Shown here: piece after piece, positions 12,048 through 32,000 of the stretch
Position numbering within the stretch: position 1 is the first letter of the stretch
How the letters are laid out: each line of letters starts with the position of its first letter
DNA from: Halogeometricum borinquense DSM 11551
GTDB lineage: Archaea; Halobacteriota; Halobacteria; Halobacteriales; Haloferacaceae
NCBI RefSeq assembly: GCF_000172995.2
Contig: NC_014729.1
Span: forward strand, 1,620,001-1,652,000
Length of the DNA stretch: 32,000 nt
Reading direction: 5' to 3'
Notes under the pieces: model-generated
The model's input: only the letters and a program-made list of their open reading frames with translations
The model's database searches: none
Told to the model about the DNA's origin: nothing
Position numbers and translations under genes: made by a program

Positions 12048-12053
12048 TGGCTC

Positions 12054-13181: not shown

Positions 13182-13245
13182 ACTCGGTCGGTGGATACCG
13201 CGGTCTAATAAAAACCGTGGTTTAAAAATATCTGATGTGTCTCTA

Positions 13246-14187: not shown

Positions 14188-15194
14188 AGGTTCACCGTAC
14201 TGCTGTCGCCGACGTTGAGGTGATTTGCTTCACCGTGAACACGGGCACTGCTGCCGACGATGCTGTGTTCGAGGTTCGCGCTCTCAAGCGTCGCCTCCCC
14301 GCCGATGATACTGTCTTTGATGATGCTGTTTCTGATGCTTGTCCCACTGTCAATACTCACGTTCGGCCCGATAACGCTCGATTCGAGCGTCACGTCGTCG
14401 CCGATGTCAACAGGTGGAACGATGACCGCACTGTCGGTATGGACTGTTCCCAGCGACTCCTGTTTCGAGAGAAGAACTCTATTGGCCTCTAACAACGTCC
14501 CCGGACGGCCACAGTCGTACCAGTTGTAAACCTCGAACGTTCCGAGGTCCGCTTCGAAATCAATCATTCGCTGGAGGGCATCAGTGAGTTGATATTCACC
14601 GCCTGCACCACGTTCGTCGTTTTCGACGAGTTCCGCAAGGCTGTCGAACAACAGATCGCTGTCTTCGATGAGATAGATTCCGCTAATCGCCAAGTCCGAC
14701 GGTGGGTTATCCGGTTTTTCGACGAGTTGCTCGATTCGTTCTTCTCCGTTTACTTCGACCACACCGTAATGCTGCGGTTCTTCGACTTGCTTGACACCGA
14801 TACTCCCATCGACGTCATCCAGTTGGTTATGTGCCTGAAGGAATTTCTCGTATCCCTTCTCGAACAGCATGTCTCCCAACGCGATGAGCAATGAATCTCC
14901 TCGGCAAACCTCCTCGGCCTGATAGATACTGTGACCCAACCCTTCGGCTTGTTCTTGTTCGACGAATGTAATGTCGAACCGGTCGCCGAACATGGCTGTG
15001 CTGTAGTCAATTATTTGAGCCTTCATCTGTCCCCCCACGACGATGACGACTTCCTCGATTCGTGTGTTACTCAAACTCACGAGGATATGACCGAGAATCG
15101 GGCGTCCCGCCAGCCGAACCATCGCCTTCGGCTTGGTGTGTGTCTGAGGATAGAGTCTTGTCCCCTGTCCTGCGGCGGGGATAACTGCCTTCAT
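14184..15194 (-). CDS. Sugar-1-phosphate nucleotidyltransferase, long form with a C-terminal left-handed beta-helix (RmlA-long / AglF-like)
   Basis: The N-terminal block is [20 protein letters not shown]. The sequence also has EYQLTDALQ and [14 protein letters not shown]. The C-terminus shows hexapeptide-like repeats ([17 protein letters not shown]). The stop overlaps the UXS start (ATGA at 14184-14187). Confidence 0.85.
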
Positions 15195-15339
15195 ACTGGC
15201 CAGATAAAGGAATGAGATGAAAAATACTGTGTTCCAGATATCTTCTTATACACACACAAGTTAGGTCAGCAGTGGATCGATTATTTCGAAGCTACGCAGA
15301 GAACAAGAGTTTTAACGTTCCTTGAATCTCTATCCGGTA
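15195..15339. promoter_or_regulatory. AT-rich divergent promoter region between the nucleotide-sugar operon and the GT2 block
   Basis: A TATA-like GTTTTAACG (about 15309-15317) lies about 27 nt upstream of the ATG at 15340. On the other strand an ATTTTTCAT element lies about 30 nt upstream of the ATG at 15194. The spacing suggests leaderless or short-leader transcripts. Confidence 0.45.
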
Positions 15340-17100: not shown

Positions 17101-17201
17101 TTCGGCTCTAGCCTCTCGTTTTGGCAAGAAAACGTCAGATTCATTCTCCTCGTCTCCGCGTAAGGATAATCTTAAGCAACCCCCGAATAAGACTGGCCTA
17201 T

Positions 17202-17918
17202 ATGTACCAAGGGAATCGGGTGATGGTCGGGATGCCCGCTTACAATGAGGCGGAGAATATTGCGACCGCAGTGGAGAATTTCTTGGCCCAAAATACGGTT
17301 GACGAAGTCGTCGTCGTTGACAATAACTCATCCGATAACACCGCAGAACTTGCTGAAGAGGCTGGCGCGACCGTCGTATCTGAGACGAGACAGGGGTACG
17401 GATACGCCTGTCAGCGCGCCTTCCAAGAGATGTACGAACACGACTCAGATCTCCTCGTCCTCGTCGAACCCGACGGGACGTTCGTCGCGGACGATATCGA
17501 GAAGTTGCTTTCCTACTCGTCTGACTTCGATTTCGTAGTCGGTACGCGCACATCTCCACAGCTCATCTGGGAGGGTGCAAACATGGACCCGTTCCTCCGG
17601 TGGGGAAACTGGTTCGTGGGAAAACTTGTCGAAGTACTGCATAACACGTCGAATCTGACTGACGTAGGATGTACGTTCCGCCTCATCAAAGCTGACGCAT
17701 ACGAGGATATTCGTCACCGATTCCGTATCGGTGGATCGCACTTCTCACCCCACATGCTCATTGAGGCGGCCCGTGAGGACATCTCGATGATAGAGATCCC
17801 GGTCAACTATCGCTCGCGGAAGGGGACCTCGAAGATTACGGGTGAACGCTGGCCGGCGTTCAAACTCGGCCTTGTGATGATCTGGCTCGTCGTCTCTGAG
17901 TGGTACAGCGACAACTGA
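17202..17918 (+). CDS. GT2 family glycosyltransferase (short, DPM1/dolichyl-phosphate-hexose synthase-like)
   Basis: The motifs are GMPAYNEAENI, VVVDNNSSDNT and LVEPDGTF, with a C-terminal amphipathic/hydrophobic tail (FKLGLVMIWLVV). I prefer the ATG at 17202 because a TATA-like GGATAATCTTAAG lies about 30 nt upstream. The track start at 17121 adds an Arg-rich non-coding-like extension. Confidence 0.75.
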   Translation: MYQGNRVMVGMPAYNEAENIATAVENFLAQNTVDEVVVVDNNSSDNTAELAEEAGATVVSETRQGYGYACQRAFQEMYEHDSDLLVLVEPDGTFVADDIEKLLSYSSDFDFVVGTRTSPQLIWEGANMDPFLRWGNWFVGKLVEVLHNTSNLTDVGCTFRLIKADAYEDIRHRFRIGGSHFSPHMLIEAAREDISMIEIPVNYRSRKGTSKITGERWPAFKLGLVMIWLVVSEWYSDN

Positions 17919-18030
17919 CGGGACAGATCATGCAATTTTCCTCTGATATGAGAAACATCCCACCTATGCCCGTCATTCGGGACTGTGTCGTGTTCCGTCT
18001 TCGACCGCTCTGCCGAGTCTCTGTCCGCCC

Positions 18031-19800
18031 ATGAGTCTCACACCGGACGGCCTTAGGTCGAGAGTCGCTTGGATTCCAGTCGGTATCACTGCTGTCGTTG
18101 CTGCCGTGTTAGCCATCCCGGCGCTGACCGACTCGTTCGCCGGTGATGAGATGGTGTTTGTCGGAGCGATGCGAGCGGCGGCCGAGACGGGACGACCGCT
18201 ATTTTACAAGAGTGTCCAGTTTGGTCAACAGTGGGGAATGTGGCATCCGCCGACGTACGTTTACTCCGTTGCGGCGGCTATCGTGGCTTTTGGAACCAAT
18301 ACGATAGTCATCCGCGGCGCGACGTTCGTTGCGACGTTGCTGACGCTTCCGCTACTCGTCGCTCTCGTCAACACACTCGTTGACCGTGACGCTGTCTCGG
18401 TTCGCAAGTCGTGGCGGTCGCCCTCATGGCAACTCGCTGCACTGGTCCTTGCTCTCTACGTGCTCTCGCCGTTGACGATTCAGAACGGCACGCTCGTAGA
18501 CATCGACGGCAGTCTCTTGCCTATTGGCGTTACGGCGTTTATCCTGTACGCAATTCGGACATTCGAACGGGACGGTCCGATCCCGAAATCTCGGTATATT
18601 GGGCTCGCGATATTGTTTGCGGGCGTTTCGTGGATAAAATTTGGTCCGCTTCCTGTCCTCGTCGCATCGTTTGTCGGCTACCTCGTCCTCCGCGGCCAGT
18701 ATCGGCGACTGCTACCGGCTGTCGCCGCCTTGGTGGTCGGGTTCGGATTGTTCTCTGTGACGTGGTGGGGCGTCTCGTCAGCTCTCGACTTACCGTTTTG
18801 GCGACCGTACGAACACAACTTCGGGATGCTTCTGTCTGGGGGTGACGGCCGTGAAATCGCCCTTCAGACGCGACTGATGCTCAGCGGGTGGGCCGGCTAT
18901 GCCTCACTGCTGTGGCTTTCACCGTTTCTTGTCCTGTTGGCAGTTGGCTCGCTCGTCTCGAACCAGGAGACTGCCCGCCCGACGCTTGAGTGGCTACAAA
19001 ATCGTGCACCGGTCCTCTTCGTCGGCGCTGTTGCTGTTCTCACTTACGTCCAGTACACTGTTCTTGCGAAGCTTCCCTACGGATTCCCGAAGTACATGGG
19101 CATATCGACGCCTTTGTTTGCGGTTCTTGCTGCGGTGTGTGTCGCTCACTTCCTCGATGCACCGCTCGAAACCCGTCGTCTCTGGCGTTTCGGTGCAGTT
19201 CTCGCGGGAGTCGTCGCCGCAGTCACGTTCCTCGCACCTGACCCATTTTACGTCTCGTTTAACAAGGGAACGATGGCCGTCCTACTCCGTGCTGGTGGGA
19301 CAGTTCTTGCCTACTCTGTTGGATTCGCGTCGGTATACGCCCTCTTCGATCACGTTGAAACAGGTGTAGAACTGAATCGGTCGTCGATTGCTGCTGTGGC
19401 ACTCGTCGTCTTGCTTGTCGGGACTAACGGCGGATTGATTCTCACGCAGGCGACAGCGGGGTACAGCACACACTACGACTACGGCCAGAAGGGGAATGAT
19501 GAGGTACTCTCGTACGTCAAAGAGACGTATGCTGACCTCCCAGCTGACGAGCAGTCTGAGGTCGTTGTCCCATTCGATATCGGACTCAAACTCCGTGAAC
19601 CGTACCACGACACCGAACTCTACTCCGTCTCGGATCTCGAGGATAGTCAACCACCGCTAGTCATCGTCAAACACCGAAAGTACTACGCCGTCAATTCGGC
19701 GCTGTTGGATCGACTGAACGACCATTCCGACTACTCGAAGCGGACTGTCGGATCGTTCTCTATATTCATCCGAGAAGACGTTTCGACAGAACAGAACTGA
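18031..19800 (+). CDS. GT-C fold membrane glycosyltransferase (PMT_2/ArnT-like, polyprenyl-phosphate-sugar dependent)
   Basis: 589 aa with about 12 hydrophobic helices. A DE motif (FAGDEMVFVG) follows directly after the first helix, as in the PMT and ArnT families. The C-terminal ~110 aa are soluble and acidic. Confidence 0.55.
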   Translation: MSLTPDGLRSRVAWIPVGITAVVAAVLAIPALTDSFAGDEMVFVGAMRAAAETGRPLFYKSVQFGQQWGMWHPPTYVYSVAAAIVAFGTNTIVIRGATFVATLLTLPLLVALVNTLVDRDAVSVRKSWRSPSWQLAALVLALYVLSPLTIQNGTLVDIDGSLLPIGVTAFILYAIRTFERDGPIPKSRYIGLAILFAGVSWIKFGPLPVLVASFVGYLVLRGQYRRLLPAVAALVVGFGLFSVTWWGVSSALDLPFWRPYEHNFGMLLSGGDGREIALQTRLMLSGWAGYASLLWLSPFLVLLAVGSLVSNQETARPTLEWLQNRAPVLFVGAVAVLTYVQYTVLAKLPYGFPKYMGISTPLFAVLAAVCVAHFLDAPLETRRLWRFGAVLAGVVAAVTFLAPDPFYVSFNKGTMAVLLRAGGTVLAYSVGFASVYALFDHVETGVELNRSSIAAVALVVLLVGTNGGLILTQATAGYSTHYDYGQKGNDEVLSYVKETYADLPADEQSEVVVPFDIGLKLREPYHDTELYSVSDLEDSQPPLVIVKHRKYYAVNSALLDRLNDHSDYSKRTVGSFSIFIREDVSTEQN

Positions 19801-19852
19801 CAACCGGTTTGCCGTCAAAGGGTTTGTATTCCGGGCTGGCTACCGTTCGTCG

Positions 19853-21220
19853 TTACCGATTGAATTGTATCGGGTTCCGGAACTGAATTTCGACACTACG
19901 CCATCGAATCTCTAAGATACCCCACGTGAACAGACTTCCAACGCACAGCATCGCGCCAAGCAGTTCGTACACGCCGACCCAACCAGGTAGCAAGAACATC
20001 ACGCCGTGGACTAGTTTGTTCGGGAAGAGCGACGTGATCATTCCAGGAATGCGCGACACCAAACTTGGCTTGGCTTGCTCTGTATCGACTACGTCGCCGG
20101 GTTCTCTCGACGGTAGTCCAAGCGCTGCGGCACTTTCTCCCCCGGCACTTTCGTCTCCAGTCCCGAGCCGTTCGGCTTCGTACGCCATCTGAATCTCGTA
20201 CGACCAGACAATTTCGCCATCGGTGTTGAGATCGATGACCCGACCGGCGGCAGTATCGGTCACGAGGGTATTCCCGTTCGGGAGTCTGTCAGCGTCTCGT
20301 GGCCACGACATCGTCCTGTCTTGCCACGTCCACGACTCGACCCATTCACCCTCCGACCGCTGGAACTCAACGATCCGGTTGTTCTCCGAGTCAGCGACGA
20401 TGACAGCGGGTCCACCCATCTTCGTGGGAATGTAGTCGGGGTTGTGCTGTTCGTATATCGTCTCGAACTCGTCTTCGCCTCCGAGGGTCCACGACTCCTC
20501 AAGACCCGACCGGTTCAAGAACACCACTTGGTCTTGGTTACGGAGGCTGGCCATGATGCGGCCGTCGTCAAGCAGTTCGACGTCGTTGATATGCGTCCAA
20601 TCATACGGGTACGCACCGCCGCCGTTACGGGGGAACGACTGTTCGGCGCGCCATTTCCACACAATCGTGCCCGTCTCAATGTTTAGGAGATGGACGTTAT
20701 CTCGGGCTATGTCTGCAACGAGGTAGTGTGTCTCATTCACACGGTCTACATCGTGCCACTGGACGGTTTCCGTACGACCGATACGTCGCGGCGGCCGCCA
20801 CGGATACGTCCGACTGTACAGCGTCTTCACTTCGCCGGTCGTCAAGTTTACTGTCCGGATGAGGTTCTTCCGACAACTGGTTACGCTCTTGCACTCTGAC
20901 GGAGAGAGCGTTTCACTGGCACCAAACAGGAGTGTCGACTTCTTATCCGATACTGGATCAACGTCCCAGTACGAATCGTGCTCTGTGTGTTTGTAGTACT
21001 CTGTGTTGTCCGCTCCGACGACCACAAACTTTGCAGTCGCGTGCGGACTATCAGCGACTGTTATCGCTGTTAATTCCTGCGAAACGTTTGGTGAGTACGT
21101 CGCAGTCTTCGATTCTTCTCCACTAACCGATTCATAACTGACATAACCCGATGCGACAGTACTGCTTCCGAGAAGCAGCACTATAAGTAGCGCAAATCGG
21201 GCTTTGGTCCGTCCCCCCAT
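19853..21220 (-). CDS. Membrane-tethered extracytoplasmic arylsulfotransferase (ASST)-like beta-propeller protein
   Basis: An N-terminal signal/anchor (KARFALLIVLLLGSSTVASG) and C-terminal hydrophobic segment(s) (VMFLLPGWVGVYELLGAMLCVGSLFTWGIL) bracket the soluble part. The central region has ASST-like blocks as I recall them: WTHINDVELLDDGRIMASLRNQDQVVFLN, YEQHNPDY, ADSENNRIVEF and LPNGNTLVTD. The assignment comes from motif memory only. Confidence 0.5.
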   Translation of the reverse strand: MGGRTKARFALLIVLLLGSSTVASGYVSYESVSGEESKTATYSPNVSQELTAITVADSPHATAKFVVVGADNTEYYKHTEHDSYWDVDPVSDKKSTLLFGASETLSPSECKSVTSCRKNLIRTVNLTTGEVKTLYSRTYPWRPPRRIGRTETVQWHDVDRVNETHYLVADIARDNVHLLNIETGTIVWKWRAEQSFPRNGGGAYPYDWTHINDVELLDDGRIMASLRNQDQVVFLNRSGLEESWTLGGEDEFETIYEQHNPDYIPTKMGGPAVIVADSENNRIVEFQRSEGEWVESWTWQDRTMSWPRDADRLPNGNTLVTDTAAGRVIDLNTDGEIVWSYEIQMAYEAERLGTGDESAGGESAAALGLPSREPGDVVDTEQAKPSLVSRIPGMITSLFPNKLVHGVMFLLPGWVGVYELLGAMLCVGSLFTWGILEIRWRSVEIQFRNPIQFNR

Positions 21221-21404
21221 CGTTCTGTGACCGTCTGTGGAGAGACATAGTACAAGAAGTTACTGTATAGTACTGCATCATTTTAGAATGATTGTCACTT
21301 CTATCCAATTTCCCCACAAACTACTCAATGATTTGCCACACTAGTTATCAAATTCTGTATTTGGTGGCGAAGATACTTGTACGGTACCGATTCAGATCAC
21401 TGGT
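21221..21404. promoter_or_regulatory. AT-rich divergent promoter region between the ASST-like gene and the FkbM operon
   Basis: This is the most AT-rich spacer in the island. It has a hairpin/palindrome ATCATT-TTAG-AATGAT (21277-21292) and the direct repeat ATAGTAC at 21247-21253 and 21267-21273. Confidence 0.45.
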
Positions 21405-22238
21405 ATGCAGTCTCTGGTACGGAGCGCGAGGGAGGTGTACCGTCATGACGGTCCTCTCTCGGTTTTCAAGTGGGGTTTGAAATGGGGGGCATGGCGAATT
21501 GGCTTAAATAACGTGTATCAACAGTTCGTTTCCGACCATCTCGTCCTTCCGTTGGACGATCTCAGTGTGTCGTTTGCCTCGTCCGGTGCGAGTGTCTTCT
21601 ACGACTTCACCGACGATTTCGAGAGCGAGAAGGACATCGTCTCGGAAGTTCTCGATGCTGTCGAGGGCGGCGACGTGTTCTATGATATTGGGGCGAATAT
21701 CGGCCTGTACGCGTGTTTCGTCGGAACCGCGTCTGACGACATCGACGTCGTCGCGTTCGAGCCGAGTCACAGAGCTAGTAGCGAGCTACGTAAAAACATT
21801 GAACTCAACCGTCTCGACGTGCAGATCCGTTCCGAAGCGCTCTCCGATGAGTGCGGTACGGCCTCGTTCGTGGATGAGGGATTGACGCAGAATCACCTCC
21901 AGTCTCGCGCCGAGACAGGGACAGCCGACGCTACCGAAGTGCCGATAGTGACTGGTGATTCGCTCGTAGACGACGGCGAAACGCCCCACCCGACAGTAGC
22001 GAAAATCGACGTCGAAGGCGCGGAGATGCAGGTCCTCCAGGGGCTCGACGCGGAACTCAGCCGTCCGGAGTTCAGAACCGTGTTTTGCGAGGTTCATCCC
22101 CGAAAGCTCCCCGAATACGATAGTTCGCCCGAGGAAGTCGAACAGTTCCTCCGAGAACGGGGGTTCTCGCTGGAAACTCTCTACGAGCGCCGTTCGCAGT
22201 ATTATCTCAAGGCTGTGAAGGACGACCACGAGGAGTAG
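21405..22238 (+). CDS. FkbM-family SAM-dependent methyltransferase
   Basis: The motifs are VFYDIGANIGLYA, VVAFEPSHRASSELRKNIELNRL and KIDVEGAEMQVLQGL. The stop lies 3 nt before the next ATG. Confidence 0.8.
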   Translation: MQSLVRSAREVYRHDGPLSVFKWGLKWGAWRIGLNNVYQQFVSDHLVLPLDDLSVSFASSGASVFYDFTDDFESEKDIVSEVLDAVEGGDVFYDIGANIGLYACFVGTASDDIDVVAFEPSHRASSELRKNIELNRLDVQIRSEALSDECGTASFVDEGLTQNHLQSRAETGTADATEVPIVTGDSLVDDGETPHPTVAKIDVEGAEMQVLQGLDAELSRPEFRTVFCEVHPRKLPEYDSSPEEVEQFLRERGFSLETLYERRSQYYLKAVKDDHEE

Positions 22239-22241
22239 CTG

Positions 22242-23498
22242 ATGTTCGACACCGGTCACCTCCGAAGGCGGTGTGAGGCGGTGAATACGGCGCTACGCAA
22301 CTCGATTGGAGTCGGCGTCCCGGTCCTGATCGTCGCACTTTCACTCTTCGTTGTGCCGTTTGTCGATCTCTCGCTGGTGGTCGCCGATATCATCGAGTTC
22401 GATCCAGTGTACGACTTCGTCACGTCGTACTACGGTGCGGCGAGGGGATACCTTGCGGGCGAAGCCGTCTACGCCAACCCTGACCACCCGTACATCTACC
22501 CGCCGCTGACGCTGCTTCTGTGGCTCCCGTTCGTCGTCTTTGATCCCTTGCTGGCAGGCGTTGTCTGGGATATTGTCGTCCTCGGGGTGCTGTACGCGAG
22601 CGTGCTGTTCCTGCTGTCGTCTCGGAATGTCTCACTAAACGCACGGTGGCGCTTTGGACTCCTCGCGGCGCTGGTCGGATTCTACCCGACGATCTTGTGG
22701 CTCAAAGCGGGACAGGTATCCGGACTGCTAGCTGCGCTCCTGTGCGTCGCTGCTGGTTTATCCGGTGGGGACGAGGGCCCTCGACACGGCATTTTGACTG
22801 GAGCCATCCTCGCGGTCGTCTCGTTGTTCAAGCCGTTCTATGCGGTCGCGGCAACGCCGGTTCCGCGGAAGAACGCGAGACTGGTTGGTGGGTTTCTCGG
22901 CGTCGCTGTCGTCATCCTTGCCGGTCTCATTATCTTTGGCATCGACATGCAACTCGCTCAATTTGACTACCTCCTCACCGGTCTCGGCTGGGGTGAGACG
23001 GCAGAGGCCGGTGGTGGGGGTTCGTCGCCGACGAACTGGGGACCCTATTACTTCCGGCCGTTCATCGTATTCGGAGGATTCGCACTGTACGTAAAGTTCG
23101 CGTTCGTCGCCCTCCTCGCGGTCGTCTCAATCGCTAGTCGGTGGATGGACTCTACGGAACTTGATGAGCGACTGTTCGTTCTCGGATTTACTGCGGTGCC
23201 ACTTCTCAGTCCCATCTCGGACCTGTTCGCGGTCAACGCCCTGATTCCGGCTCTCGTTCTCACCTCAGTCGCGGAACTGCGGCGGGAGGAGTCACTCATT
23301 CAGGTTCCGCTGTTCACTGTCCTCATGATTCAAATACACCCGTACCTGTTCGGCTTCCTCGCCAGTTTCGGTCCGCGGTACGTCCCGGAACTTCGCGTCT
23401 TGGAACCGGTACTTCCACTGCTTCAACCTGCTCTCTGGGGTATCTTCGCGCTTGTCGGACTCCAATTGTACCGTATCTCGAAGGAAGTGGACTTCTGA
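22242..23498 (+). CDS. GT87/DUF2029-like GT-C membrane glycosyltransferase, paralog 1
   Basis: 418 aa and polytopic. The first-loop region is DFVTSYYGAARGYLAGEAVYANPDHPYIYPPLTLLLWLPF, an Asp plus YxYPP pattern as in PimE-type enzymes. It shares GFYPTILWLKAGQVSGLL with the next gene. Confidence 0.5.
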   Translation: MFDTGHLRRRCEAVNTALRNSIGVGVPVLIVALSLFVVPFVDLSLVVADIIEFDPVYDFVTSYYGAARGYLAGEAVYANPDHPYIYPPLTLLLWLPFVVFDPLLAGVVWDIVVLGVLYASVLFLLSSRNVSLNARWRFGLLAALVGFYPTILWLKAGQVSGLLAALLCVAAGLSGGDEGPRHGILTGAILAVVSLFKPFYAVAATPVPRKNARLVGGFLGVAVVILAGLIIFGIDMQLAQFDYLLTGLGWGETAEAGGGGSSPTNWGPYYFRPFIVFGGFALYVKFAFVALLAVVSIASRWMDSTELDERLFVLGFTAVPLLSPISDLFAVNALIPALVLTSVAELRREESLIQVPLFTVLMIQIHPYLFGFLASFGPRYVPELRVLEPVLPLLQPALWGIFALVGLQLYRISKEVDF

Positions 23499-23619
23499 AC
23501 TGATTCTCGCGCCTCACTCTTTCCGACTCGGGCTTGCCCGTTCTTTCGGCTACTGTCGCCGAAATCAACAACGACGGTAGATAGTGAGATATTAATGAGT
23601 CGTCGCAGAATTCCGCGGC

Positions 23620-24864
23620 ATGGACCTCTCGACAGCGTTTCGCCGCACACGGCGCTCACGTCCGCGCCTGTTCTGGCTCTCCGCCGTTACGCTGGCGTCG
23701 TTGCTCGTGTTTCCCGCCGTTGAAATCGCCCTCCAGTCGGCGAACCTCGTCCCCGGATTCACGTTCTACGACTTCCGTGGCGCCTTCTATACTGCTGGAG
23801 AACGATTCCTCTCTGGAAAGAACCTGTACGCCGACGTACACAACCCGTACGTCTATCCGCCCGTCGTCGTCCTCCTGTTTGCACCCTTCACTGTCGTCTC
23901 TCCGTGGATGGCGGGTCTGTTGTGGAATGTCTTCTCGCTGGCTGTGTTAGGTGCGGGACTATTCGCGCTCGTTCGCTCCTTCGGAGTTCGCCTTTCGATT
24001 CCGTCGAAAGCCGTTCTACTGTGGGCACTGGTCGGGTTCTTCCCGACGATTTTGTGGCTCAAAGCTGGGCAAGTATCTGGCTTCCTCACGGGACTGTTCT
24101 GCTTTGCCGTTGCAGCACACCGACGGAGTTGGCAAGATGATGATTCTACCACGCTCGCATTAGCTAGCGGTGCGCTGACGACGATTTCAAGTTCGTTCAA
24201 GCCGTTCTACGCACCGTCTGGCGCGCACCTCCTCCGCGACAAGAAACGTTTTGTCGGAGCTGTCGCCGCCGTTGTGGGAATCGTCGGACTGAGTCTCTTC
24301 TTCGGCGTTGAGACGTTCACTGACTACCTCGGTGTTCTCACGCACGGCAAGGGTTGGGGACAGGCCACTGAACCCGGCGGAATCAGCACCGACATTACCA
24401 ACTGGGGCCCGTTCTTCTTCCGGCCGCTGTACTTTTTCGGATCGGCTGCGCTGTACATCCGTCTCGCGTTGACATTCGGCGTCGCCGGACTCGTCCTGTA
24501 TAGTCGCCGCGATGACTCAGCACGGTCGGAGTACGCCGCACTCGCACTCGGACTGACGACAATTCCGCTGGCCAGTCCGATCCCCGACCTGTTCGCTGTC
24601 ACACCTCTTATCCCCGCATTTATCGTTTCGCTGTTCAACGAACTCCAACTTGACGACGGTCTCCCCGAGATTCCTGTTCTGTCCGTACTCCTATTCCACG
24701 TTCACGCGTATACACTCGGATTCTTCGCAGGATTCGGTGCTACTATCATCCCTGCGGTTTCTGCTCTTGAACCATTATTGCCGTTCTTGCAGGCGGGGAT
24801 GTGGGCGCTGGCGCTCATGTTTGGACTCCAAGTGTATCGAATCGGCCAATCTGTTCGCGCCTAA
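23620..24864 (+). CDS. GT87/DUF2029-like GT-C membrane glycosyltransferase, paralog 2
   Basis: 414 aa with the same architecture as paralog 1. The shared blocks are DFRGAFYTAGERFLSGKNLYADVHNPYVYPPVVVLLFAPF, GFFPTILWLKAGQVSGFL, TNWGPFFFRP and LFAVTPLIPAF, all colinear with 22242-23498. Confidence 0.5.
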   Translation: MDLSTAFRRTRRSRPRLFWLSAVTLASLLVFPAVEIALQSANLVPGFTFYDFRGAFYTAGERFLSGKNLYADVHNPYVYPPVVVLLFAPFTVVSPWMAGLLWNVFSLAVLGAGLFALVRSFGVRLSIPSKAVLLWALVGFFPTILWLKAGQVSGFLTGLFCFAVAAHRRSWQDDDSTTLALASGALTTISSSFKPFYAPSGAHLLRDKKRFVGAVAAVVGIVGLSLFFGVETFTDYLGVLTHGKGWGQATEPGGISTDITNWGPFFFRPLYFFGSAALYIRLALTFGVAGLVLYSRRDDSARSEYAALALGLTTIPLASPIPDLFAVTPLIPAFIVSLFNELQLDDGLPEIPVLSVLLFHVHAYTLGFFAGFGATIIPAVSALEPLLPFLQAGMWALALMFGLQVYRIGQSVRA

Positions 24865-24928: not shown

Positions 24929-25657
24929 ATGGTTTCTGGCGACATTGCCGACGCCGACGGCCCGATGGACGCAGTTCCGGGCCCCGGACGCGACGCGTGT
25001 GACGCTCATGCGGCACTCGACGTAGAAGCCGTACTCTCGGACACTTCGGTTGTGATCCCGAGCCGGGACGAGCAGAACTACACGAGCAAGAGCGTCCCCG
25101 ACTGGCTTGAGGTCGTCGTCCGGACAGACGACGGGCGAAGCGTCGCCCGCAACCGCGGCGTTGAAGAGGCAACGGGTGAGTGGATTGTTCTCGCCGACGA
25201 TGACATTACGTTCCCGACCACGCTGACAGCTATGCTCGTTGACTCTATGCATACGTGCCATCTCGCTGGTCTGGAGGATTTCTGGCCGATGGACACGCTA
25301 CTGACTCGGTACATGGTCTTTCACCGGTCGCTGTGGGACGCCGTTGGCGGTTTTGATGAGAGTCGAGAACACGGTGAAGACTCCGACTTTGTCTACCGAT
25401 GCGCGGACGCAGGGGCAAAGATACGTCCGCTTCCTCGTAACATCGTTCCACACCACGACGCCGATACCGAGTTCTCCGCGCTTGAACACGTCGAATGGCT
25501 CTGGTATCTCCTGCGGCGACATCCGGTTCGCATGGCTCCGAAAGCGGCGCTGTTGGGTCTCCAGAAGCTTGGACTGGTCGAACCTCCCGTGACAGACTAC
25601 CCGGATGGGTGGTCTAGCCAACTCATTCAGCCTTCCGGAGAGGGAGACGAGAGATGA
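24929..25657 (+). CDS. Small GT-A/GT2-like glycosyltransferase
   Basis: The motifs are SVVIPSRDE, ARNRGVEEATGEWIVLADDDITF (the DxD region) and FHRSLWDAVGGFDE. The stop overlaps the next start (ATGA at 25654-25657). The true start could be an internal Met. Confidence 0.55.
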   Translation: MVSGDIADADGPMDAVPGPGRDACDAHAALDVEAVLSDTSVVIPSRDEQNYTSKSVPDWLEVVVRTDDGRSVARNRGVEEATGEWIVLADDDITFPTTLTAMLVDSMHTCHLAGLEDFWPMDTLLTRYMVFHRSLWDAVGGFDESREHGEDSDFVYRCADAGAKIRPLPRNIVPHHDADTEFSALEHVEWLWYLLRRHPVRMAPKAALLGLQKLGLVEPPVTDYPDGWSSQLIQPSGEGDER

Positions 25658-26844
25658 ATATCGTTCACATCACGGCGGGTCTCGTTCCAATCCACGGTGA
25701 GTTCGGCGGCGGCGTCGAGCGCCATATCCGAGCAGTCACGACGGGTCTTGCTGCCCGGGACCACAATGTGACAGTCGTGGACCGCCGCCACGATGTTGAT
25801 GACCCACTCAGCATTGACGGGGTTGATGTACTCCGACTCGCGGCCCCACGGGTCCAGACAGGTCTACTTGACGGGTGGTTGGACCACGTGCTGAACGAGT
25901 GTTTGTACTCGGCCGGTCTTCGCCGTGCCCAAGAGCGAATTGCCGAGGCCGATGTGGTCCACGCGCATAACATGTACGCGGGCCTTGCCGCGCGGCGCCT
26001 CGCCCGGAAAGCACGAGTTCCATTCGTCTATACCTGCCACAACGGAATGTGGTGTACTGACGACGTGAACACCTACGAACAACAAGTCGTCCGCCGCTTT
26101 GAGGGGAGTTTGATGCGAGATGCCGATGCGTCAATCGCTGTGAGCGAAGCCGTCGCTGACGGGGCACGTACGTACGGCGACGCCGACCCGACGGTGATTC
26201 CGAATGGTGTTGACACCGAGATCTACGGCCCCGATGCGGACACCCGTTCAGTCGAAGACACCTACGAGCTCGACGGCCGAAAGACCGTCCTCTTCGTTGG
26301 TCGTCTCGCCCGAGCAAAAGGGGTTGATGTCCTCGTCAAGGCCGCTCGTGACGTACTCGACAGCAGCAACGACCCGGTCCGGTTTGTCCTCGTCGGTCCT
26401 GACAAACACATGTTCGGCGGATCTGCCGCAGAGTCGTATCCTACGGAGATACGGCGTTTGCTTGATGAATTGGGCGTCCGAGACGACTTCGTATTCGCCG
26501 GACAGGTATCTGATGAGGAACTTGTCTCCCTCTACACGGCCGCCGATGCGTTCGTCCTTCCGTCACGGTACGAGGCGCAGGGGATGGTCCTCTTGGAGGC
26601 ACTCGCCAGCGGAACGCCTGTTGTCGGAACAGATGTCGGTGGCATCTCCGAAGTCGTTACCAGCGATGTCGGCCGTGTTGTCCCACCTGAGGCCCCGGTG
26701 CAGTTAGCAGAGGCACTCCTCGCTGTCCTCGATGCTGACCGAAACGGCGCGATGTCAGTCACCGCCCGTGACTACGCCGAACGGACCTATGCATGGCCAC
26801 GTATCGTCTCCCGAATCGAATCCGTGTACGAGGGGGTCAGATAG
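25654..26844 (+). CDS. GT4 family (GT-B) glycosyltransferase
   Basis: The C-terminal Glycos_transf_1 signature is LFVGRLARAKGVD...VLPSRYEAQGMVLLEALASGTPVVGTDVGGISEVV. Confidence 0.85.
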   Translation: MNIVHITAGLVPIHGEFGGGVERHIRAVTTGLAARDHNVTVVDRRHDVDDPLSIDGVDVLRLAAPRVQTGLLDGWLDHVLNECLYSAGLRRAQERIAEADVVHAHNMYAGLAARRLARKARVPFVYTCHNGMWCTDDVNTYEQQVVRRFEGSLMRDADASIAVSEAVADGARTYGDADPTVIPNGVDTEIYGPDADTRSVEDTYELDGRKTVLFVGRLARAKGVDVLVKAARDVLDSSNDPVRFVLVGPDKHMFGGSAAESYPTEIRRLLDELGVRDDFVFAGQVSDEELVSLYTAADAFVLPSRYEAQGMVLLEALASGTPVVGTDVGGISEVVTSDVGRVVPPEAPVQLAEALLAVLDADRNGAMSVTARDYAERTYAWPRIVSRIESVYEGVR

Positions 26845-28077
26845 ATGCACGTCCTGTTCGTCGGCACGCGCGCGCCACTGACGCCGGAGCGTCGCGGCGC
26901 TATCGAGAAACTCACCTTCGACCTCGCTTCGACGTTGGCGTCTGAGGGGCACGACGCAACGGTTCTCACTGTCGGTGAATCCGGCCGCCGATACACCGCC
27001 GAGGGCGTTCAACTAGTAGAAATAACCGAACCGATAACGCGCCCTCCCTCGCATGTCACGCCCGTCGTGGAGTTCGGTCGCAAAGCACGCCGAGTCGCCG
27101 ACAGAATCCACCGTGAGAATCCGGTGGATGTGGTTCATGCTGTCTACTACCCGAACCTTCTCGGCTTCCGACCTCCCGGCGATGCTCCGCTCGTCGTCGC
27201 CGAGCACAACGCCCACCCGTGGCGGAAGGAGCATCGTTTTATTGAGGAATTGACTATTACACACCGACTCCGCTGGGAGGCTGACACCTACATCAGACTC
27301 GCGGAGGCCCACGCTGCCTTCTTCGGCGCCGAGAGAGTTCTTAGCGTCAGCGACGCCCACGGCGAGTGGATCGACCGAGCGATTCCAGAAGCGCGGTCGA
27401 AGCGCGAGACGATGTACAACTTCGTCGATACAGACGTTTATCGCCCCGATACCGCATCAGAACGCGATATCGACTTCCCCGATGGGAAAACAGTCCTGTA
27501 CGCGGGTCGAAAAGTCCCTCACAAGGGCCTTCACAGGGCAGTCAGTGCGATATCCAAGATGGAGACCGACGCAACACTCGTCGTTCTCGGCCCACTCGGA
27601 AGTGGATTCAGCGATGTGGATTCTCTTGATGGTGTAAATCCCGATGATCTCGAGCCATATCTCGGGAGTGTTATCGAGGATGCACAAAATTCCGGAGTGA
27701 CCGATCAAATCTCGTTCCCTGGCTATGTCGCTGACGCCGACCTTCCGGCCTACTACGCCGCAGCGGATGTCACCACGTTCCCGAGTGTCCTCGAATCGTT
27801 TGGTATGGTCCCGGTGGAATCGATGGCGTGCGGAACACCAGTCGTCGCCCACGACGTGCCGCCGATAGATGAGACGGTTCTTGATGGTGAGACTGGGTTC
27901 CTGACAAACGAGGTGTCGGCGTCGGCACTCGCAGCAGCCCTGGATCGACTTCTCACCGACGATTCTCTTCGAAGCCAGTTCGCTGAACGGGGACGGAATC
28001 GAGCGGTCGAGCGATTCGACATCGAAACCGCCGTACAGGAACATATCCGCTTGTACGAGCGCGTTCACAGCGAGTAA
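26845..28077 (+). CDS. GT4 family (GT-B) glycosyltransferase
   Basis: The signature is YAGRKVPHKGL...TFPSVLESFGMVPVESMACGTPVVAHDVPPIDETV. The ATG directly abuts the previous stop. Confidence 0.85.
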   Translation: MHVLFVGTRAPLTPERRGAIEKLTFDLASTLASEGHDATVLTVGESGRRYTAEGVQLVEITEPITRPPSHVTPVVEFGRKARRVADRIHRENPVDVVHAVYYPNLLGFRPPGDAPLVVAEHNAHPWRKEHRFIEELTITHRLRWEADTYIRLAEAHAAFFGAERVLSVSDAHGEWIDRAIPEARSKRETMYNFVDTDVYRPDTASERDIDFPDGKTVLYAGRKVPHKGLHRAVSAISKMETDATLVVLGPLGSGFSDVDSLDGVNPDDLEPYLGSVIEDAQNSGVTDQISFPGYVADADLPAYYAAADVTTFPSVLESFGMVPVESMACGTPVVAHDVPPIDETVLDGETGFLTNEVSASALAAALDRLLTDDSLRSQFAERGRNRAVERFDIETAVQEHIRLYERVHSE

Positions 28078-28116: not shown

Positions 28117-29514
28117 ATGCCAGACCCCGCCGACCGACCGCACGTCGTCTTCTTGACGGTCGATTCGCTCCGGCGTGATGATGTCGGTTGTTATGGACAA
28201 CTCGACATTGAGTACGATCTCACCCCGCAAATCGACACGCTCGCAGACGAGGGGGCACGGTTTGATGCTGCCATCAGCAACGGACCGAGTACGCTCTACT
28301 CGTTCCTGGCGAGTCAGACTTCAACGTATCCGCTCGAAGACGAAGAACATACGCGAAACCGACCGTTCCTTGCCGAGGAACTCTCCAAGGGTGGATACGA
28401 GACGGCGGCGTTCGTCACGAACCCCTTCCTGACGACACACTACGGCTTTGACCGTGGGTTCGATCACTTCCGAGATTTCACGGGATCTGAGGCCGATGAC
28501 GAGGGGACGGCAGGTCTCAAGCGGGATTTCATGGATAAACTCAACCGGGCGCTCCGTCGTTCACCGTTCCTATACGAGATTGCAAAAGGGGTTAAGAACT
28601 TCAGTTCGGCTCCGTTCCCCAGAGCGGGGCAAGTCAACGACGAAGTTGTTACGTATCTCGAATCGACCGACGGTGATGACCCGCTGTTCTTGTGGGCACA
28701 CTATATGGATCCGCATCATCCGTATCTGCCCGAACCAGAATACCGTGATCTCCCATTCGTTCCTTCGCTGAGTAAGTGGGAGATCATCCGTTTGTCGGCG
28801 AAGATTGACCTCATCAAGCGCGACGATTACGACCGGACGAACATCACCGACGAAACGCTGTCGAACCTTCGTGCTCTCTATCGCGCACAAATAAAACGTA
28901 CCGACGACGCTATCAAGCGAGTCGTTCGTTCGCTCAAAGAGAATGGTCTGTACGATGATACCCTGCTCATCATTGCCTCAGACCACGGCGACGAGTTCTT
29001 CGAGCACGGGTCGCTCGGACATTCTCCCCAGTTGTACGACGAGCTCATCCACGTCCCGTTCGTCGTCAAGACTCCCGCGGACCATGAGACAATCGAATCG
29101 GTGGAAGGCTTGATGGCTTACCTGGACATCCCACCGACAGTACTTGATTTTGCAGGGATAACACCGCCGTCTTCGATGCGTGGTGAGAGCGTTCGTGAGT
29201 CATTCGAGACGGGAGCAACGGATCGAGAACACGTCATCAGCGAATACACTTACTGGGACGACCGAATCACCTCGCTCCGAACGCCCGAGTGGAAGTACAT
29301 CGTTGATTATCTCCACGACCGAGAGGAACTGTTCGATATCAACACGGATCCGACAGAACAGACGAACGTGCTGTCCGACACTCCAGACGTAGCTGCGGAA
29401 CTCCGCGAAATCGTCCGGACGCATCTTGATGCCGAAGGGGAACACCAGAGTACGGCGTACGATGATATCGACGACGAAATGCGAGGTCAACTCGAAGACC
29501 TCGGCTATCTGTAA
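28117..29514 (+). CDS. Cytoplasmic sulfatase-like hydrolase/transferase (alkaline-phosphatase superfamily) lacking the C/S-x-P-x-R formylglycine motif
   Basis: The AP-superfamily blocks are VVFLTVDSLRRDDVGCYG, TPQIDTLADEGARFD and IIASDHGDEFFEHGSLGHS. At the position of the sulfatase CxPxR motif the sequence is NGPST (28279-28293). There is no signal peptide or transmembrane segment. Confidence 0.75.
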   Translation: MPDPADRPHVVFLTVDSLRRDDVGCYGQLDIEYDLTPQIDTLADEGARFDAAISNGPSTLYSFLASQTSTYPLEDEEHTRNRPFLAEELSKGGYETAAFVTNPFLTTHYGFDRGFDHFRDFTGSEADDEGTAGLKRDFMDKLNRALRRSPFLYEIAKGVKNFSSAPFPRAGQVNDEVVTYLESTDGDDPLFLWAHYMDPHHPYLPEPEYRDLPFVPSLSKWEIIRLSAKIDLIKRDDYDRTNITDETLSNLRALYRAQIKRTDDAIKRVVRSLKENGLYDDTLLIIASDHGDEFFEHGSLGHSPQLYDELIHVPFVVKTPADHETIESVEGLMAYLDIPPTVLDFAGITPPSSMRGESVRESFETGATDREHVISEYTYWDDRITSLRTPEWKYIVDYLHDREELFDINTDPTEQTNVLSDTPDVAAELREIVRTHLDAEGEHQSTAYDDIDDEMRGQLEDLGYL

Positions 29515-29583
29515 CCTCTCTTCACCGCGGAAGACTCTACTGAAGCGGTGGCTATTTGGCAGTGTGCCGCCGAACGCATCTCA

Positions 29584-30997
29584 ATGTCTGATGTCGCCGA
29601 GCGACCGCCGATAGTTTTTCTCACAATCGACTCGCTGCGACGCGACGAAGTTGGTTGCTACGGGGACAGAGGTGTTGATTATGACCTCACTCCCGAAATC
29701 GACTCGCTCGCAGCGGATGGCGTTCGATTCGACACCGCTATCAGCAACGCGCCGAACACGCTCTTCTCGTTCCTTGCGACGCTTACCTCCACGTACCCGT
29801 TAGCTAAGAAGGGCAACACGGCCGGGCGACCCGCAGTGGCTGAAGAACTCTCGGACGCCGGTTACCGGACGGCAGGGTTCCACTCGAATCCGTTTCTCTC
29901 CCGTCACTACGGGTTCCATCGCGGCTTTGATGTGTACCACGACTTCACCGACGGTAGTGGCGATGGCGACGATGACGGTGAATCCTCGCTGACGAACCGG
30001 TTCTTCGAGGTGCTCAATCGAACGCTTCACCGATCTCCTCTCCTGCACGAGTACGCAAAGGAGACAAAGAACTACTTCACGCCACCGTACACGCGCGCTG
30101 GTCCCATCAACGACGCTGCTACCGAGCATCTTCGAAACGTGGACTTCGATGACCCGCAATTCGTCTGGGTCCACTATATGGACGCACACCACCCCTATCT
30201 CCCGACGGGGAAGTACCGAGAACTCCCGTTCCTTCCCGATATTTCACCGGTTCGAACCGTTGACCTTGCAGCAAAGATTGACTTGGTCAAACACCCCGAG
30301 TACGACGGCGCTAGAGCGTCCGTCTCGGAACGTGATGTAGCGGATCTCCGTGCTCTCTACCGAGCACAGGTCAAACGCACCGACGACGCCGTTGGCGAAA
30401 TTGTCGCCGAGCTAAAGCGCCCAGGGAATCTATGAGGAGGCATGTATCGTCATCGCTTCGGACCACGGTGACGAATTCCTCGAACACGGGTCGCTCGGTC
30501 ATTCCCCGCAGTTGTACGACGAACTCATCCACGTCCCGTTCATTGTCAAACCGCCGGCCGAATATGATACAGTAGACGCTATCGAGGATCTGACAGCGTA
30601 TCTCGACATCGGACCGACCTTCCTCGACCTCGCGGGTACCAGCGCACCTGATGAGATGGAGGGTCAGTCGTTCCTTGACGCCCTCGAAAATGGAAAAACG
30701 GAGCGTGAGGCGGTCATCAGCGAGTACGCCAACAGCGGAAAGCGAATCACGTCCCGGCGGACACTCGAGTGGAAGTACATCCTCGACGATTACCACGACC
30801 GAGAGGAACTGTTCGATCTCACAACTGACAGTACCGAACAGACTGACTGCTCTACTGACCGACCGGAAGTACTGGAGTCGTTCCGCGATGCCGTCCGAGA
30901 ACGCATGTCTCATGAGGAGTTCGATACCGACGCATCGTTCGACGACGACGTGGACGAGGAGATGCGACAACAGTTAGAGGACCTCGGCTACCTCTGA
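29584..30997 (+). pseudogene. Tandem paralog of the sulfatase-like gene, disrupted by a 1-nt frameshift
   Basis: Track ORFs 29548-30435 and 30512-30997 are colinear with 28117-29514 (MSDVAERPPIVFLTIDSLRRDE ... DEEMRQQLEDLGYL). The frame breaks at ...AELKR|PGNL*. In the +1 frame the text continues GIYEEACIVIASDHGDEFLEHGSLGHSPQLYDELIHVPF, matching paralog 1. One extra C in the CCC run at 30420-30422 explains the shift. Confidence 0.7.
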
Positions 30998-31054
30998 GAA
31001 CCTCGTGGACGAACCGCGACCTATTTTGCGGCGGTACTTCAACCGAGAGAATAT

Positions 31055-32000
31055 ATGACCGAGCAAGAGGCAAGCGACATCAGCCTCGGTGGCGAGACGG
31101 TCAAAGCGGCACTGGGGAAGTTCATAATGGCCCTCATCGGCTTTGTGGGGACTATTATCTTCGCTCGGTGGCTTGGCTCCGACAGCCTCGGTGGCTACTA
31201 CCTCCTCTTGACGGCCGCAGCTCTCTCTAACCGTCCCGTTCAGGGCCTTGCCGAAGCGATACAGAAACGTGGATCGGAGTCGGGCTTCGAACTGGAGCAG
31301 ACGCTCTCTGTCGGGACACTCGTCGTCATCGGATGGACCGCTCTCGCCGCTCTCATCGCGTACGCTCTCCGCGGCTACCTCCAATCGTTTTTCGGATTTC
31401 CGGGGTCAGTTTCTGCGTTTGTCGCCCTGTTAGCTTCACTGAGCGGCTTCTTCATCCTCCAGTCGCAACTCGTTGCACTCGGACGTATCAGTCGAAATCA
31501 GTGGTTTGACACCGTCCGGTCGTACCTCACATTCCCAGCACAACTCGGATTTCTCATCCTCGGATGGGGTGCTGCTGGCGTCGCCATCGGAGAAGTCGTG
31601 GCGACGCTCCTGTTGTACGTCCCGATGTACCGGTCGTTCGGGACTGGATTTGCACGTCCCACCGTCGAGACGATGCGGTCGCTATGGGAGTACGCGAAGT
31701 ACAGCATTCCGAACGAGTACCTGACGCACACGTACAGCCAACTGGATATGCTCCTCCTTGGTTTTCTCGTCGGAAAGAGCGCGACCGGCGAGTACGGGGT
31801 CGCCCTCCGTCTTACTGTCCCCGCGGCGTTCGTTTCGATGGTCGCCACGCAGGGCTTGTTCTCGCGGGTCAGCAACCTTCGGTCGAAGGGTGAGCGTGTC
31901 GATATCGACGTACAGAACACGCTTTCATTCGCCAGTATTGTTGCTATCCCGATGCTTGTTGGAGGCGTTCTTCTCGATGAACAACTTGTCGTGACGGCGT
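31055..32000 (+). CDS. Wzx/AglR-type oligosaccharide flippase (MOP superfamily polysaccharide biosynthesis protein), N-terminal ~315 aa. The 3' end lies outside the window.
   Basis: This ORF is not in the ORF track because it has no stop in the window. My translation from the ATG at 31055 is MTEQEASDISLGGETVKAALGKFIMALIGFVGTIIFARWLGSDSLGGYYLLLTAAALSNRPVQGLAEAIQKR..., followed by repeated hydrophobic helices to the window end. A TATA-like CTATTTTGCG lies about 30 nt upstream. Confidence 0.7.
   Translation, partial: MTEQEASDISLGGETVKAALGKFIMALIGFVGTIIFARWLGSDSLGGYYLLLTAAALSNRPVQGLAEAIQKRGSESGFELEQTLSVGTLVVIGWTALAALIAYALRGYLQSFFGFPGSVSAFVALLASLSGFFILQSQLVALGRISRNQWFDTVRSYLTFPAQLGFLILGWGAAGVAIGEVVATLLLYVPMYRSFGTGFARPTVETMRSLWEYAKYSIPNEYLTHTYSQLDMLLLGFLVGKSATGEYGVALRLTVPAAFVSMVATQGLFSRVSNLRSKGERVDIDVQNTLSFASIVAIPMLVGGVLLDEQLVVTA

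Follow-up and report, generated by a model that had tools for sequence, protein, structure and literature searches.

Threonine-type sulfatase-like proteins in the aglB cluster of Halogeometricum borinquense as candidate enzymes of N-glycan sulfation

Sulfation of archaeal N-glycans by sulfatase-like proteins has been known since 2025, when two proteins encoded in the aglB cluster of Halobacterium salinarum, the membrane-associated Agl30 (VNG1056C) and the cytosolic Agl31 (VNG1057C), both sulfatase-like and belonging to the alkaline-phosphatase superfamily, were each found to be required for sulfating one sugar of a dolichol-phosphate-linked tetrasaccharide (Zaretsky et al., mBio 2025, PMC11980604). 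Deletion of either gene lowers glycan sulfation, and expression of either one in Haloferax volcanii gives a sulfated glycan. The two proteins act on the dolichol-phosphate-linked glycan before it is flipped, and the sulfate on the Halobacterium glycan was defined by nuclear magnetic resonance (NMR), according to the same paper, which makes no mention of 3′-phosphoadenosine 5′-phosphosulfate (PAPS), of a donor, an active site, a nucleophile or a mechanism. In Haloferax volcanii, Agl7 (HVO_2046) is genetically required to sulfate the dolichol-phosphate-linked hexose of the low-salt N-glycan (PMC3892788), and a review of sulfotransferase classes from 2024 contains no class with the alkaline-phosphatase fold. 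The question of archaeal N-glycan sulfation was answered genetically only in 2025, and it is on the side of mechanism that a further locus is of value. Here, we describe such a locus, a tandem pair of sulfatase-like genes in a stretch of 32,000 nucleotides from the chromosome of Halogeometricum borinquense DSM 11551 (NC_014729.1, positions 1,620,001 to 1,652,000 of the forward strand; "the window" in what follows). Their products carry threonine at the position where sulfatases have formylglycine (FGly), and we refer to them and their relatives as Thr-type. The two genes are:

28117-29514, plus strand: paralog 1, a predicted cytoplasmic Thr-type sulfatase-like enzyme of 465 aa (ADQ67283.1 / WP_006054827.1), from the open reading frame (ORF), Pfam and AlphaFold2
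29584-30997, plus strand: paralog 2, 470 aa after removal of one C (WP_006054828.1), fragments of 283 + 161 aa as deposited

Translated, 28117-29514 matches ADQ67283.1/WP_006054827.1 of H. borinquense at 100% identity, and paralog 2 shares 56% identity with paralog 1 and retains every key residue discussed below. A preliminary description of this DNA, made from the letters alone, had read the genes as tandem sulfatase-like paralogs with the superfamily blocks VDSLRRD and ASDHGDEF.EHGSLGHS. Both blocks are present in both translated proteins, and both proteins match Pfam Sulfatase (PF00884; E 1.8e-39 for paralog 1) and SGSH_C, so that the family assignment stands; what had been missed is that paralog 2 is not a single ORF in the deposited sequence but is interrupted by a frameshift. 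Neither paralog has a signal peptide or a transmembrane helix, as that description had also stated (the highest 19-residue Kyte-Doolittle mean is 1.0). Paralog 1 starts at its first beta-strand, a hydrophobic segment is absent from both proteins, and both are strongly acidic, with 93-95 Asp+Glu each. From the lack of a signal peptide and a transmembrane helix, both are predicted to reside in the cytosol.

30420-30422, plus strand: CCC run, one base too long, that shifts the frame of paralog 2 and brings in a stop at 30433-30435 (compared with the second assembly)

As deposited, the frame of paralog 2 closes at TGA 30433-30435, with the DHG block in another frame, and the GenBank complete genome lists the gene as two fragments, ADQ67284.1 (283 aa) and ADQ67285.1 (161 aa). 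Deleting one C of the CCC run restores the segment ELKRQGIYEE and the 470-aa product, which is 100% identical to the intact 470-aa protein ELY28500.1/WP_006054828.1 of an independent draft assembly. Since this second assembly comes from the same strain, DSM 11551, we rejected the candidate reading of paralog 2 as a pseudogene; the frameshift almost certainly is a homopolymer sequencing error in the deposited chromosome. Intact copies of both paralogs are found in other strains as well.

The preliminary description had placed N-G-P-S-T (28279-28293, paralog 1) and N-A-P-N-T (29746-29760, paralog 2) at the sulfatase nucleophile motif. The coordinates are correct, but the register is four residues off. 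In phmmer alignments it is T59, not N55, that falls on the nucleophile of steryl-sulfatase (L-FGly75-TPSR), of 2QZU (S-S-P-A-R) and of 7AN1 (S-A-P-S-R). This register is anchored by TSTYP of the window proteins, which equals T-G-x-Y-P/TGRYP in the sulfatases, with no gap between motif and anchor, and a full-length profile alignment with 7OZ8 gives the same placement of T59. The Pro of NGPST is the Pro commonly found two residues ahead of the nucleophile, and the counterpart of C-x-P-x-R reads T59-L-Y-S-F63 in paralog 1 and T-L-F-S-F in paralog 2. Alignment with structurally characterised superfamily members had been named beforehand as the check on the claimed lack of a formylglycine motif, and no Cys or Ser in a C/S-x-P-x-R context emerged from it in either paralog; moreover, the motif Arg, the Lys-x-His and the catalytic Lys are missing too. 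The earlier guess that the Thr of the P-x-T element is the nucleophile had thus been reached through a mis-registered alignment. It survives, and is strengthened by the correct register, which puts the invariant T59 at the formylglycine column and, in the predicted structure, at the start of helix 59-68. The residues concerned are encoded as follows:

28162-28164, plus strand: codon of D16, predicted metal ligand (= D20 of the arylsulfatase EfAS, see below), Asp in 116/117 homologues
28291-28293, plus strand: codon of T59 of paralog 1, predicted nucleophile, aligns with FGly/Ser of steryl-sulfatase, 2QZU, 7AN1 and 7OZ8
28981-28986, plus strand: codons of D289-H290, predicted metal ligands (= EfAS D311-H312), invariant, from alignments
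29020-29022, plus strand: codon of H302, in place of the catalytic Lys, aligns with the Lys of 6PT4 and stands beside the Arg-Lys of 7OZ8
29758-29760, plus strand: codon of T59 of paralog 2, predicted nucleophile

The arylsulfatase of Enterococcus faecium (EfAS) allows these positions to be read against residues proven essential, since mutation of its Arg, its Lys-x-His or its Lys abolishes activity (PMC12421950). The window proteins keep D16 (D20 in EfAS), H200 (H220), D289 (D311) and H290 (H312), whereas Q21 is replaced by S17, C61 by T59, R65 by F63 and K324 by H302, and a T/S-N-P segment stands where EfAS has K110-x-H112. Hence, by alignment, residues at three of the four metal-ligand positions of S1 sulfatases are retained as predicted ligands (D16, D289 and H290; the second position is S17), and of the sulfate-binding and catalytic residues K110, H112, H220 and K324 only one His survives (H200). 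The Mn-dependent arylsulfatase of Enterococcus was itself considered as a non-formylglycine relative and was rejected, as its nucleophile residue is Cys61.

An AlphaFold2 model of paralog 1, built with 112 homologues, reached a predicted local distance difference test score (pLDDT) of 93.5 and a predicted template modelling score (pTM) of 0.93. In this model, T59 is the first residue of helix 59-68, just after strand 47-53, and its placement there is the usual nucleophile position of the alkaline-phosphatase superfamily. The best 50 matches of a Foldseek search against the PDB were S1 sulfatases and related phosphonate monoester hydrolases only, with 7OZ8 at the top (E 6e-25, template modelling (TM) score 0.73); 5G2U and 6HHM, the structural neighbours of Agl30/Agl31, were also among them. 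With S1 sulfatases such as BT1918 (S1_46, 7OZ8), choline sulfatase (6FNY) and 9KOQ, the window proteins share a two-domain fold (TM score about 0.7, profile E 4.5e-64) and the positions of the nucleophile, of the Asp/Asp/His metal ligands and of the His before P-Y (H200). They differ from them in having Thr for the Cys/Ser-derived formylglycine, Phe for the motif Arg, Ser for the second Asp/Gln, no Lys-x-His, and His for the catalytic Lys, as well as in their predicted cytoplasmic location, their biosynthetic context and in presumably needing no maturase.

No LtaS or EptA structure was found among the best 60 PDB sequence matches or the best 50 Foldseek matches. In NCBIfam, the LtaS model gave 24.9 bits against a cut-off of 970 and the YejM model 25.4 against a cut-off of 825, and the match to "arylsulfatase", at 164 bits, lay under its cut-off of 481. 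There also was a weak match to Pfam Phosphodiest in the window proteins. The candidate idea that the DHG..H block is nearer to LtaS/EptA was rejected, since this segment taken alone matches S1 sulfatases and phosphonate monoester hydrolases first. Because the LtaS and YejM scores are marginal and the DHG..H segment matches sulfatases first, the Thr-type family is, by its sequence, placed as an offshoot of the sulfatase branch and not of the LtaS/EptA branch. Both window proteins are predicted to be soluble, metal-dependent enzymes of the S1-sulfatase fold, with threonine replacing formylglycine.

The threonine is not a peculiarity of this pair. In retrieved sequences aligned to the family hidden Markov model (HMM) for residue counts, the nucleophile column is Thr in 117/117 of the nearest homologues of paralog 1 and in all 112 members of a haloarchaeal subfamily (P0064-type) that includes a third H. 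borinquense paralog, while a third subfamily, with the motif W-S-L-P-S-H, has Ser in 119/119. The residue four positions after the nucleophile is F, M, H, L or V and in none of the 117 homologues Arg. D16, R19, H200, Y255, D289 and H290 are essentially invariant among the homologues, and the H302 column is His in 110/117. HMMER, run exhaustively against 1.84 billion cluster representatives (50% identity), returned 79,296 clusters at E<=1e-30, a count that takes in formylglycine sulfatases and does not give the extent of the Thr-type clade. In the 138 best-scoring new representatives there were 164 domains, of which 158 have Thr, 4 Ser, 1 Arg, 1 Ala and none Cys; such conservation of Thr at the nucleophile column is far beyond chance. 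Twenty-nine of these 138 are tandem fusions of two or more Thr-type sulfatase-like domains. The top-scoring representatives (P0365-P0389) are proteins of 860-1550 aa with two to four Thr-type domains, a fused form of the window's tandem genes.

The authors of SulfAtlas have pointed out that Thr is found in many members of PF00884, that these cannot make formylglycine and that their annotation is wrong (PMC5066984). The Thr-type clade, in which the nucleophile is sometimes Ser and many members are annotated as "arylsulfatase A" in databases, may be of great size, and the database name "arylsulfatase" for these proteins is likely a large-scale mis-annotation.

The gene context of the pair is that of glycan synthesis. 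The window is the aglB-anchored N-glycosylation cluster of H. borinquense DSM 11551, and the neighbours of the pair that matter here are:

7620-10865, minus strand: AglB oligosaccharyltransferase (Pfam STT3, AglB_core-like, AglB_L1)
25654-28077, plus strand: two GT4 glycosyltransferase genes directly upstream of the sulfatase-like pair (Pfam; same order in loci L081 and L084)
31055-32000, plus strand: Polysacc_synt-type flippase directly downstream, which runs off the window (same neighbour in L081, L084, L088 and L090)

The cluster opens with UDP-glucose dehydrogenase, AglB, three epimerase/dehydratase genes and a nucleotidyltransferase, continues with a GT2 fused to LPG_synthase_TM, a second GT2, a 589-aa multi-span protein, an ASST-like gene (arylsulfate sulfotransferase, ASST) and an FkbM methyltransferase, and ends with two GT87, a GT2, two GT4, the two sulfatase-like genes and the Polysacc_synt flippase, with 39-69 bases between each of the last five genes. 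The earlier proposal that the pair acts in the cytoplasm on a dolichol-linked sugar fits this position between the GT4 genes and the flippase, and, by analogy, it fits the genetics of Agl30/Agl31 (PMC11980604). The Pfam scan covered 27 ORFs, i.e., all those read as genes plus the unassigned 257-742, 1185-1673 and 30974-31384, other overlapping ORFs of at least 150 aa in alternative frames being left out. Among these 27 there was no domain of a formylglycine-generating enzyme or of a radical-SAM (anaerobic) maturase, in agreement with what had been noted before from the letters of the window.

Similar arrangements are found elsewhere. A metagenomic relative with 49% identity sits in the order GT87, GT2, GT4, GT4, sulfatase-like, flippase, with AglB adjoining. 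The aglB clusters of Haloferax sp. Atlit (L088/L089) have four sulfatase-like genes just ahead of the flippase and share with the window a left flank of AAA_16, HAD, methyltransferase, VCA0040-like and AglB genes, and in Haloferax mucosum (L087) three PF00884 and four PF01663 genes are interspersed with glycosyltransferase genes and a flippase gene. The Haloferax cluster proteins and the window pair all have the residue constellation D/R/[TS]/H/Y/D/H/H and a C-terminal L-x-x-L-G-Y. Glycan-synthesis genes are present at no fewer than 26 of 80 loci taken from species-representative genomes, and AglB is present at three. Haloarchaeal members of the clade are thus routinely found in aglB clusters just before the flippase, often in several copies.

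A second line of context concerns sulfate activation. Genes for it lie within about 8 kb at 6/80 unselected loci, where about one would be expected by a rough estimate. In an uncultured archaeon (L013), the Thr-type gene directly adjoins an operon that encodes ATP sulfurylase, an NPP-like (nucleotide pyrophosphatase/phosphodiesterase-like) protein and adenosine 5′-phosphosulfate (APS) kinase. In a member of the Pirellulales (L031), MttB-like, ASST-like and ATP sulfurylase genes are followed by the sulfatase-like gene, whose start overlaps the preceding stop, and then by PAPS reductase, and a member of the Desulfatiglandales (L074) has a similar set with ATP sulfurylase and PAPS reductase. In L090, a glycan cluster from a metagenome, ATP sulfurylase and Sulfotransfer_1 genes stand together with two sulfatase-like genes, a GT4 and a flippase. 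The relatives that stand beside sulfate-activation genes have the Thr and the full residue constellation, and independent neighbourhoods link the Thr-type clade to activated sulfate.

Two observations on these loci may be added. In the operon of L013 (11500-14584, minus strand), the NPP-like gene (PF01663) has ATP sulfurylase on one side and APS kinase on the other, which suggests that both alkaline-phosphatase-superfamily types at this locus handle APS or PAPS. In the bacterial loci L031, L035 and L046, ASST-like genes adjoin the Thr-type genes, and PAPS reductase is present each time.

How close the window proteins are to Agl30/Agl31 was judged from the C-termini, which in the window are encoded at:

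29491-29511, plus strand: C-terminal tail LEDLGYL of paralog 1, an LGY-type tail as in homologues
30974-30994, plus strand: C-terminal tail of paralog 2, of the R-L-x-[DE]-L-G-Y-[LRAVM] type

The final residues of both window proteins are QLEDLGYL, and the published cloning primers for the Halobacterium genes translate to the C-termini HLEDLGYL (Agl30) and LEELGYT (Agl31). LGY-type tails occur in 95/120 and 117/120 homologues of two subfamilies, and a tail R-L-x-[DE]-L-G-Y-[LRAVM] ends haloarchaeal Thr-type proteins, Ser-type W-S-L-P-S-H proteins and NPP-like PF01663 paralogs alike (also in L059, L087 and L088), so that the tail was rejected as a means of telling the Thr-type subfamily apart. 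Bacterial relatives encoded in sulfate-assimilation operons lack this tail, which may be a docking motif. The tails deduced from the primers support a place of Agl30/Agl31 in the broad clade, not in a particular subfamily. No Halobacterium locus was among the matches listed in a scan of genome contigs, exact matching of primer-derived 21-mers in metagenome contigs gave nothing or two chance matches in unrelated genes, and protein searches from L059 (a Halobacteriaceae paralog) and from P0064 (which ends HLEDLGYL) led to other haloarchaeal subfamilies and to no Halobacterium protein. The window proteins are very probably relatives of Agl30/Agl31. Like these, they are sulfatase-like alkaline-phosphatase-superfamily proteins and form two paralogs in one aglB cluster; like Agl31, they are predicted to be soluble and cytosolic, whereas Agl30 has a membrane anchor.

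On balance, we think it probable that the Thr-type pair sulfates the lipid-linked N-glycan by a Thr-based sulfuryl transfer, with PAPS or APS as donor. Our own analysis established the fold, the residue mapping, the conservation, the gene context and the synteny; the sulfation of lipid-linked glycans by sulfatase-like proteins is carried over, as an analogy, from the literature on Agl30/Agl31, and from these together we infer the donor, the covalent intermediate, the acceptor and any sulfation of the H. borinquense glycan. In the mechanism that we propose, T59, activated by a divalent metal on D16, D289 and H290, would attack the activated sulfate, most likely PAPS or APS, and a covalent Thr-O-sulfate enzyme would form. 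From there the sulfate would pass, still on the cytoplasmic side and ahead of flipping, to one of the hydroxyls of the lipid-linked glycan. Each paralog would have a sugar or position of its own, as is the case for Agl30 and Agl31 in Halobacterium salinarum.

The chemistry of the nucleophile bears on this proposal. The sulfo-enzyme of formylglycine sulfatases collapses through the aldehyde hydrate. A hydroxyl nucleophile can accept sulfate but cannot release it by this route, which would favour transfer over hydrolysis. FGly-to-Ser mutants of human arylsulfatases are said to trap a stable sulfo-enzyme (work of Recksiek et al. from 1998), and by this reasoning Thr is expected to keep the sulfate until it is attacked by an acceptor. 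A PAPS-independent, ping-pong sulfuryl transfer via a covalent sulfo-enzyme exists in the ASST type, though the fold there is a beta-propeller unrelated to that of the window proteins, the intermediate is a sulfo-histidine and the enzyme is periplasmic. The Thr-type clade as a whole could be a mechanistically new sulfotransferase class on the alkaline-phosphatase/sulfatase scaffold, working through a covalent Thr-O-sulfate, in which formylglycine has been replaced to prevent collapse to free sulfate; this broader proposal we hold only tentatively and would sooner expect to be revised than upheld.

Several points weigh against N-glycan sulfation by the pair. There is no PAPS-synthesis gene within the window, the evidence on Agl30/Agl31 is genetic and not a sulfate transfer by purified protein (PMC11980604), and the LGY tail that connects them with the window proteins is not subfamily-specific, since Ser-type and NPP-like paralogs carry it. 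The active site also resembles that of Thr-type phosphoryl transferases (Thr, D/D/H ligands and a His that comes 12 residues later than the DH pair), and hydrolysis is no less plausible as the role of those relatives that bacteria encode in sulfate-assimilation operons.

The last point leads to an alternative for the window pair itself, i.e., formylglycine-free sulfatases that use the Thr as nucleophile and water as acceptor, and that either trim sulfate from a glycan intermediate or free sulfate from an organic ester. The nearest neighbours in sequence and fold are all sulfatases, and the bacterial Thr-type operons, in which a GntR regulator and an MttB-family methyltransferase accompany ATP sulfurylase and PAPS reductase, have a layout that resembles organosulfate catabolism feeding sulfate assimilation. 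We nevertheless consider hydrolysis unlikely for the H. borinquense proteins. A sulfo-Ser/Thr enzyme is, from what is reported of the FGly-to-Ser mutants, a dead end. The cluster is biosynthetic and the genes precede the flippase, all the elements essential in EfAS (Arg, Lys-x-His and Lys) are replaced (PMC12421950), and in Halobacterium the deletions reduce rather than raise glycan sulfation, while expression adds sulfate (PMC11980604). The statement of the preliminary description that the pair are probably not sulfate-ester hydrolases therefore stands in one part, as by sequence they are not of the formylglycine type; that they do not hydrolyze is unproven, hydrolysis being plausible for the bacterial Thr-type relatives. 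Its three points of interpretation are all supported, and among them only the non-formylglycine status can be read directly from the sequence. Ordinary formylglycine-dependent arylsulfatases, as the proteins are named in databases, have practically no chance of being the answer. The names and the sub-threshold match to NCBIfam "arylsulfatase" (164 bits, far under the cut-off of 481) are what speaks for them. As the nucleophile position has neither Cys nor Ser, as Pro-x-Arg is missing and the window ORFs scanned include no maturase gene, and as Thr cannot yield formylglycine (PMC5066984), this reading is already refuted at the level of sequence.

A phosphoryl or phosphodiester transferase or hydrolase of the EptA/LtaS/NPP kind, which would place a phospho-substituent such as phosphoglycerol or phosphoethanolamine on the lipid-linked glycan or take one off, is a further alternative and in our judgement an improbable one. 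EptA/MCR-1 and LtaS are group transferases that modify glycolipids through a covalent Thr intermediate, and they have the Thr nucleophile on the same structural element, acid/Thr/Asp/His ligands and a downstream His; in the window proteins, this His follows the DH pair by 12 residues, a spacing which we take to be that of MCR-1. In addition, the same clusters contain NPP-like paralogs, there are the weak matches to Pfam Phosphodiest and to NCBIfam LtaS and YejM, and sulfate and phosphate are only 0.0095 Da apart in mass spectrometry. However, the sequence similarity is marginal (about 25 bits against cut-offs of 825-970), and the searches of PDB sequences and of folds described above retrieved neither LtaS nor EptA among their best matches. 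The EptA/MCR-1 and LtaS enzymes are membrane-anchored with extracytoplasmic catalytic domains, use phospholipid donors for the transfer of phosphodiester groups and have no SGSH_C subdomain, whereas the window proteins are without a membrane domain and lack the N-terminal multi-span part. The neighbourhoods indicate sulfate activation and not phospholipid metabolism, and the sulfate of the Halobacterium glycan is NMR-defined (per PMC11980604). As for the idea that the proteins are dead pseudoenzymes, or that paralog 2 is a decaying pseudogene, it could draw on the frameshift in the deposited paralog 2 and on the loss of several sulfatase catalytic residues. The nucleophile, the metal ligands and the His/Arg/Tyr set are invariant over hundreds of sequences, though, and the frameshift is seen neither in the second DSM 11551 assembly nor in other strains, which makes this idea very improbable indeed.

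Apart from the sulfatase-like pair, the window offers some further observations on the glycosylation cluster:

18031-19800, plus strand: 589-aa protein predicted to span the membrane many times, without a Pfam match
19853-21220, minus strand: ASST-like beta-propeller protein with an N-terminal signal/anchor and a C-terminal transmembrane helix, inside the glycosylation cluster
22242-24864, plus strand: two tandem GT87 membrane glycosyltransferase paralogs (418 and 414 aa), of which L081 has a single one

The 589-aa protein has a counterpart in L081 (584 aa) that adjoins a GT2 gene and AglB, and it may be an undescribed glycosyltransferase of the GT-C type. Compared between Haloferax and the window, the aglB locus consists of a conserved anchor and a variable cassette of glycan genes. 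The G+C content is 0.53-0.57 over 11000-24000 as opposed to 0.60-0.63 in the left flank, with the sulfatase-like genes at about 0.56, and this drop is consistent with a horizontally exchanged glycan cassette.

The signature that emerges, an invariant Thr at the formylglycine position with three of the four predicted metal ligands kept, with the Arg, the Lys-x-His and the Lys lost and with a new invariant Arg, His and Tyr, provides together with the linkage to sulfate-activating genes a concrete and testable mechanism for a sulfatase fold that would be run as a sulfotransferase. For H. borinquense, it predicts an N-glycan that is sulfated on up to two positions. If the mechanism is true for the clade, it would add a fifth kind to the sulfotransferases, of which the PAPS-dependent polysaccharide, cytosolic and tyrosylprotein enzymes and those of the ASST type are the other four.

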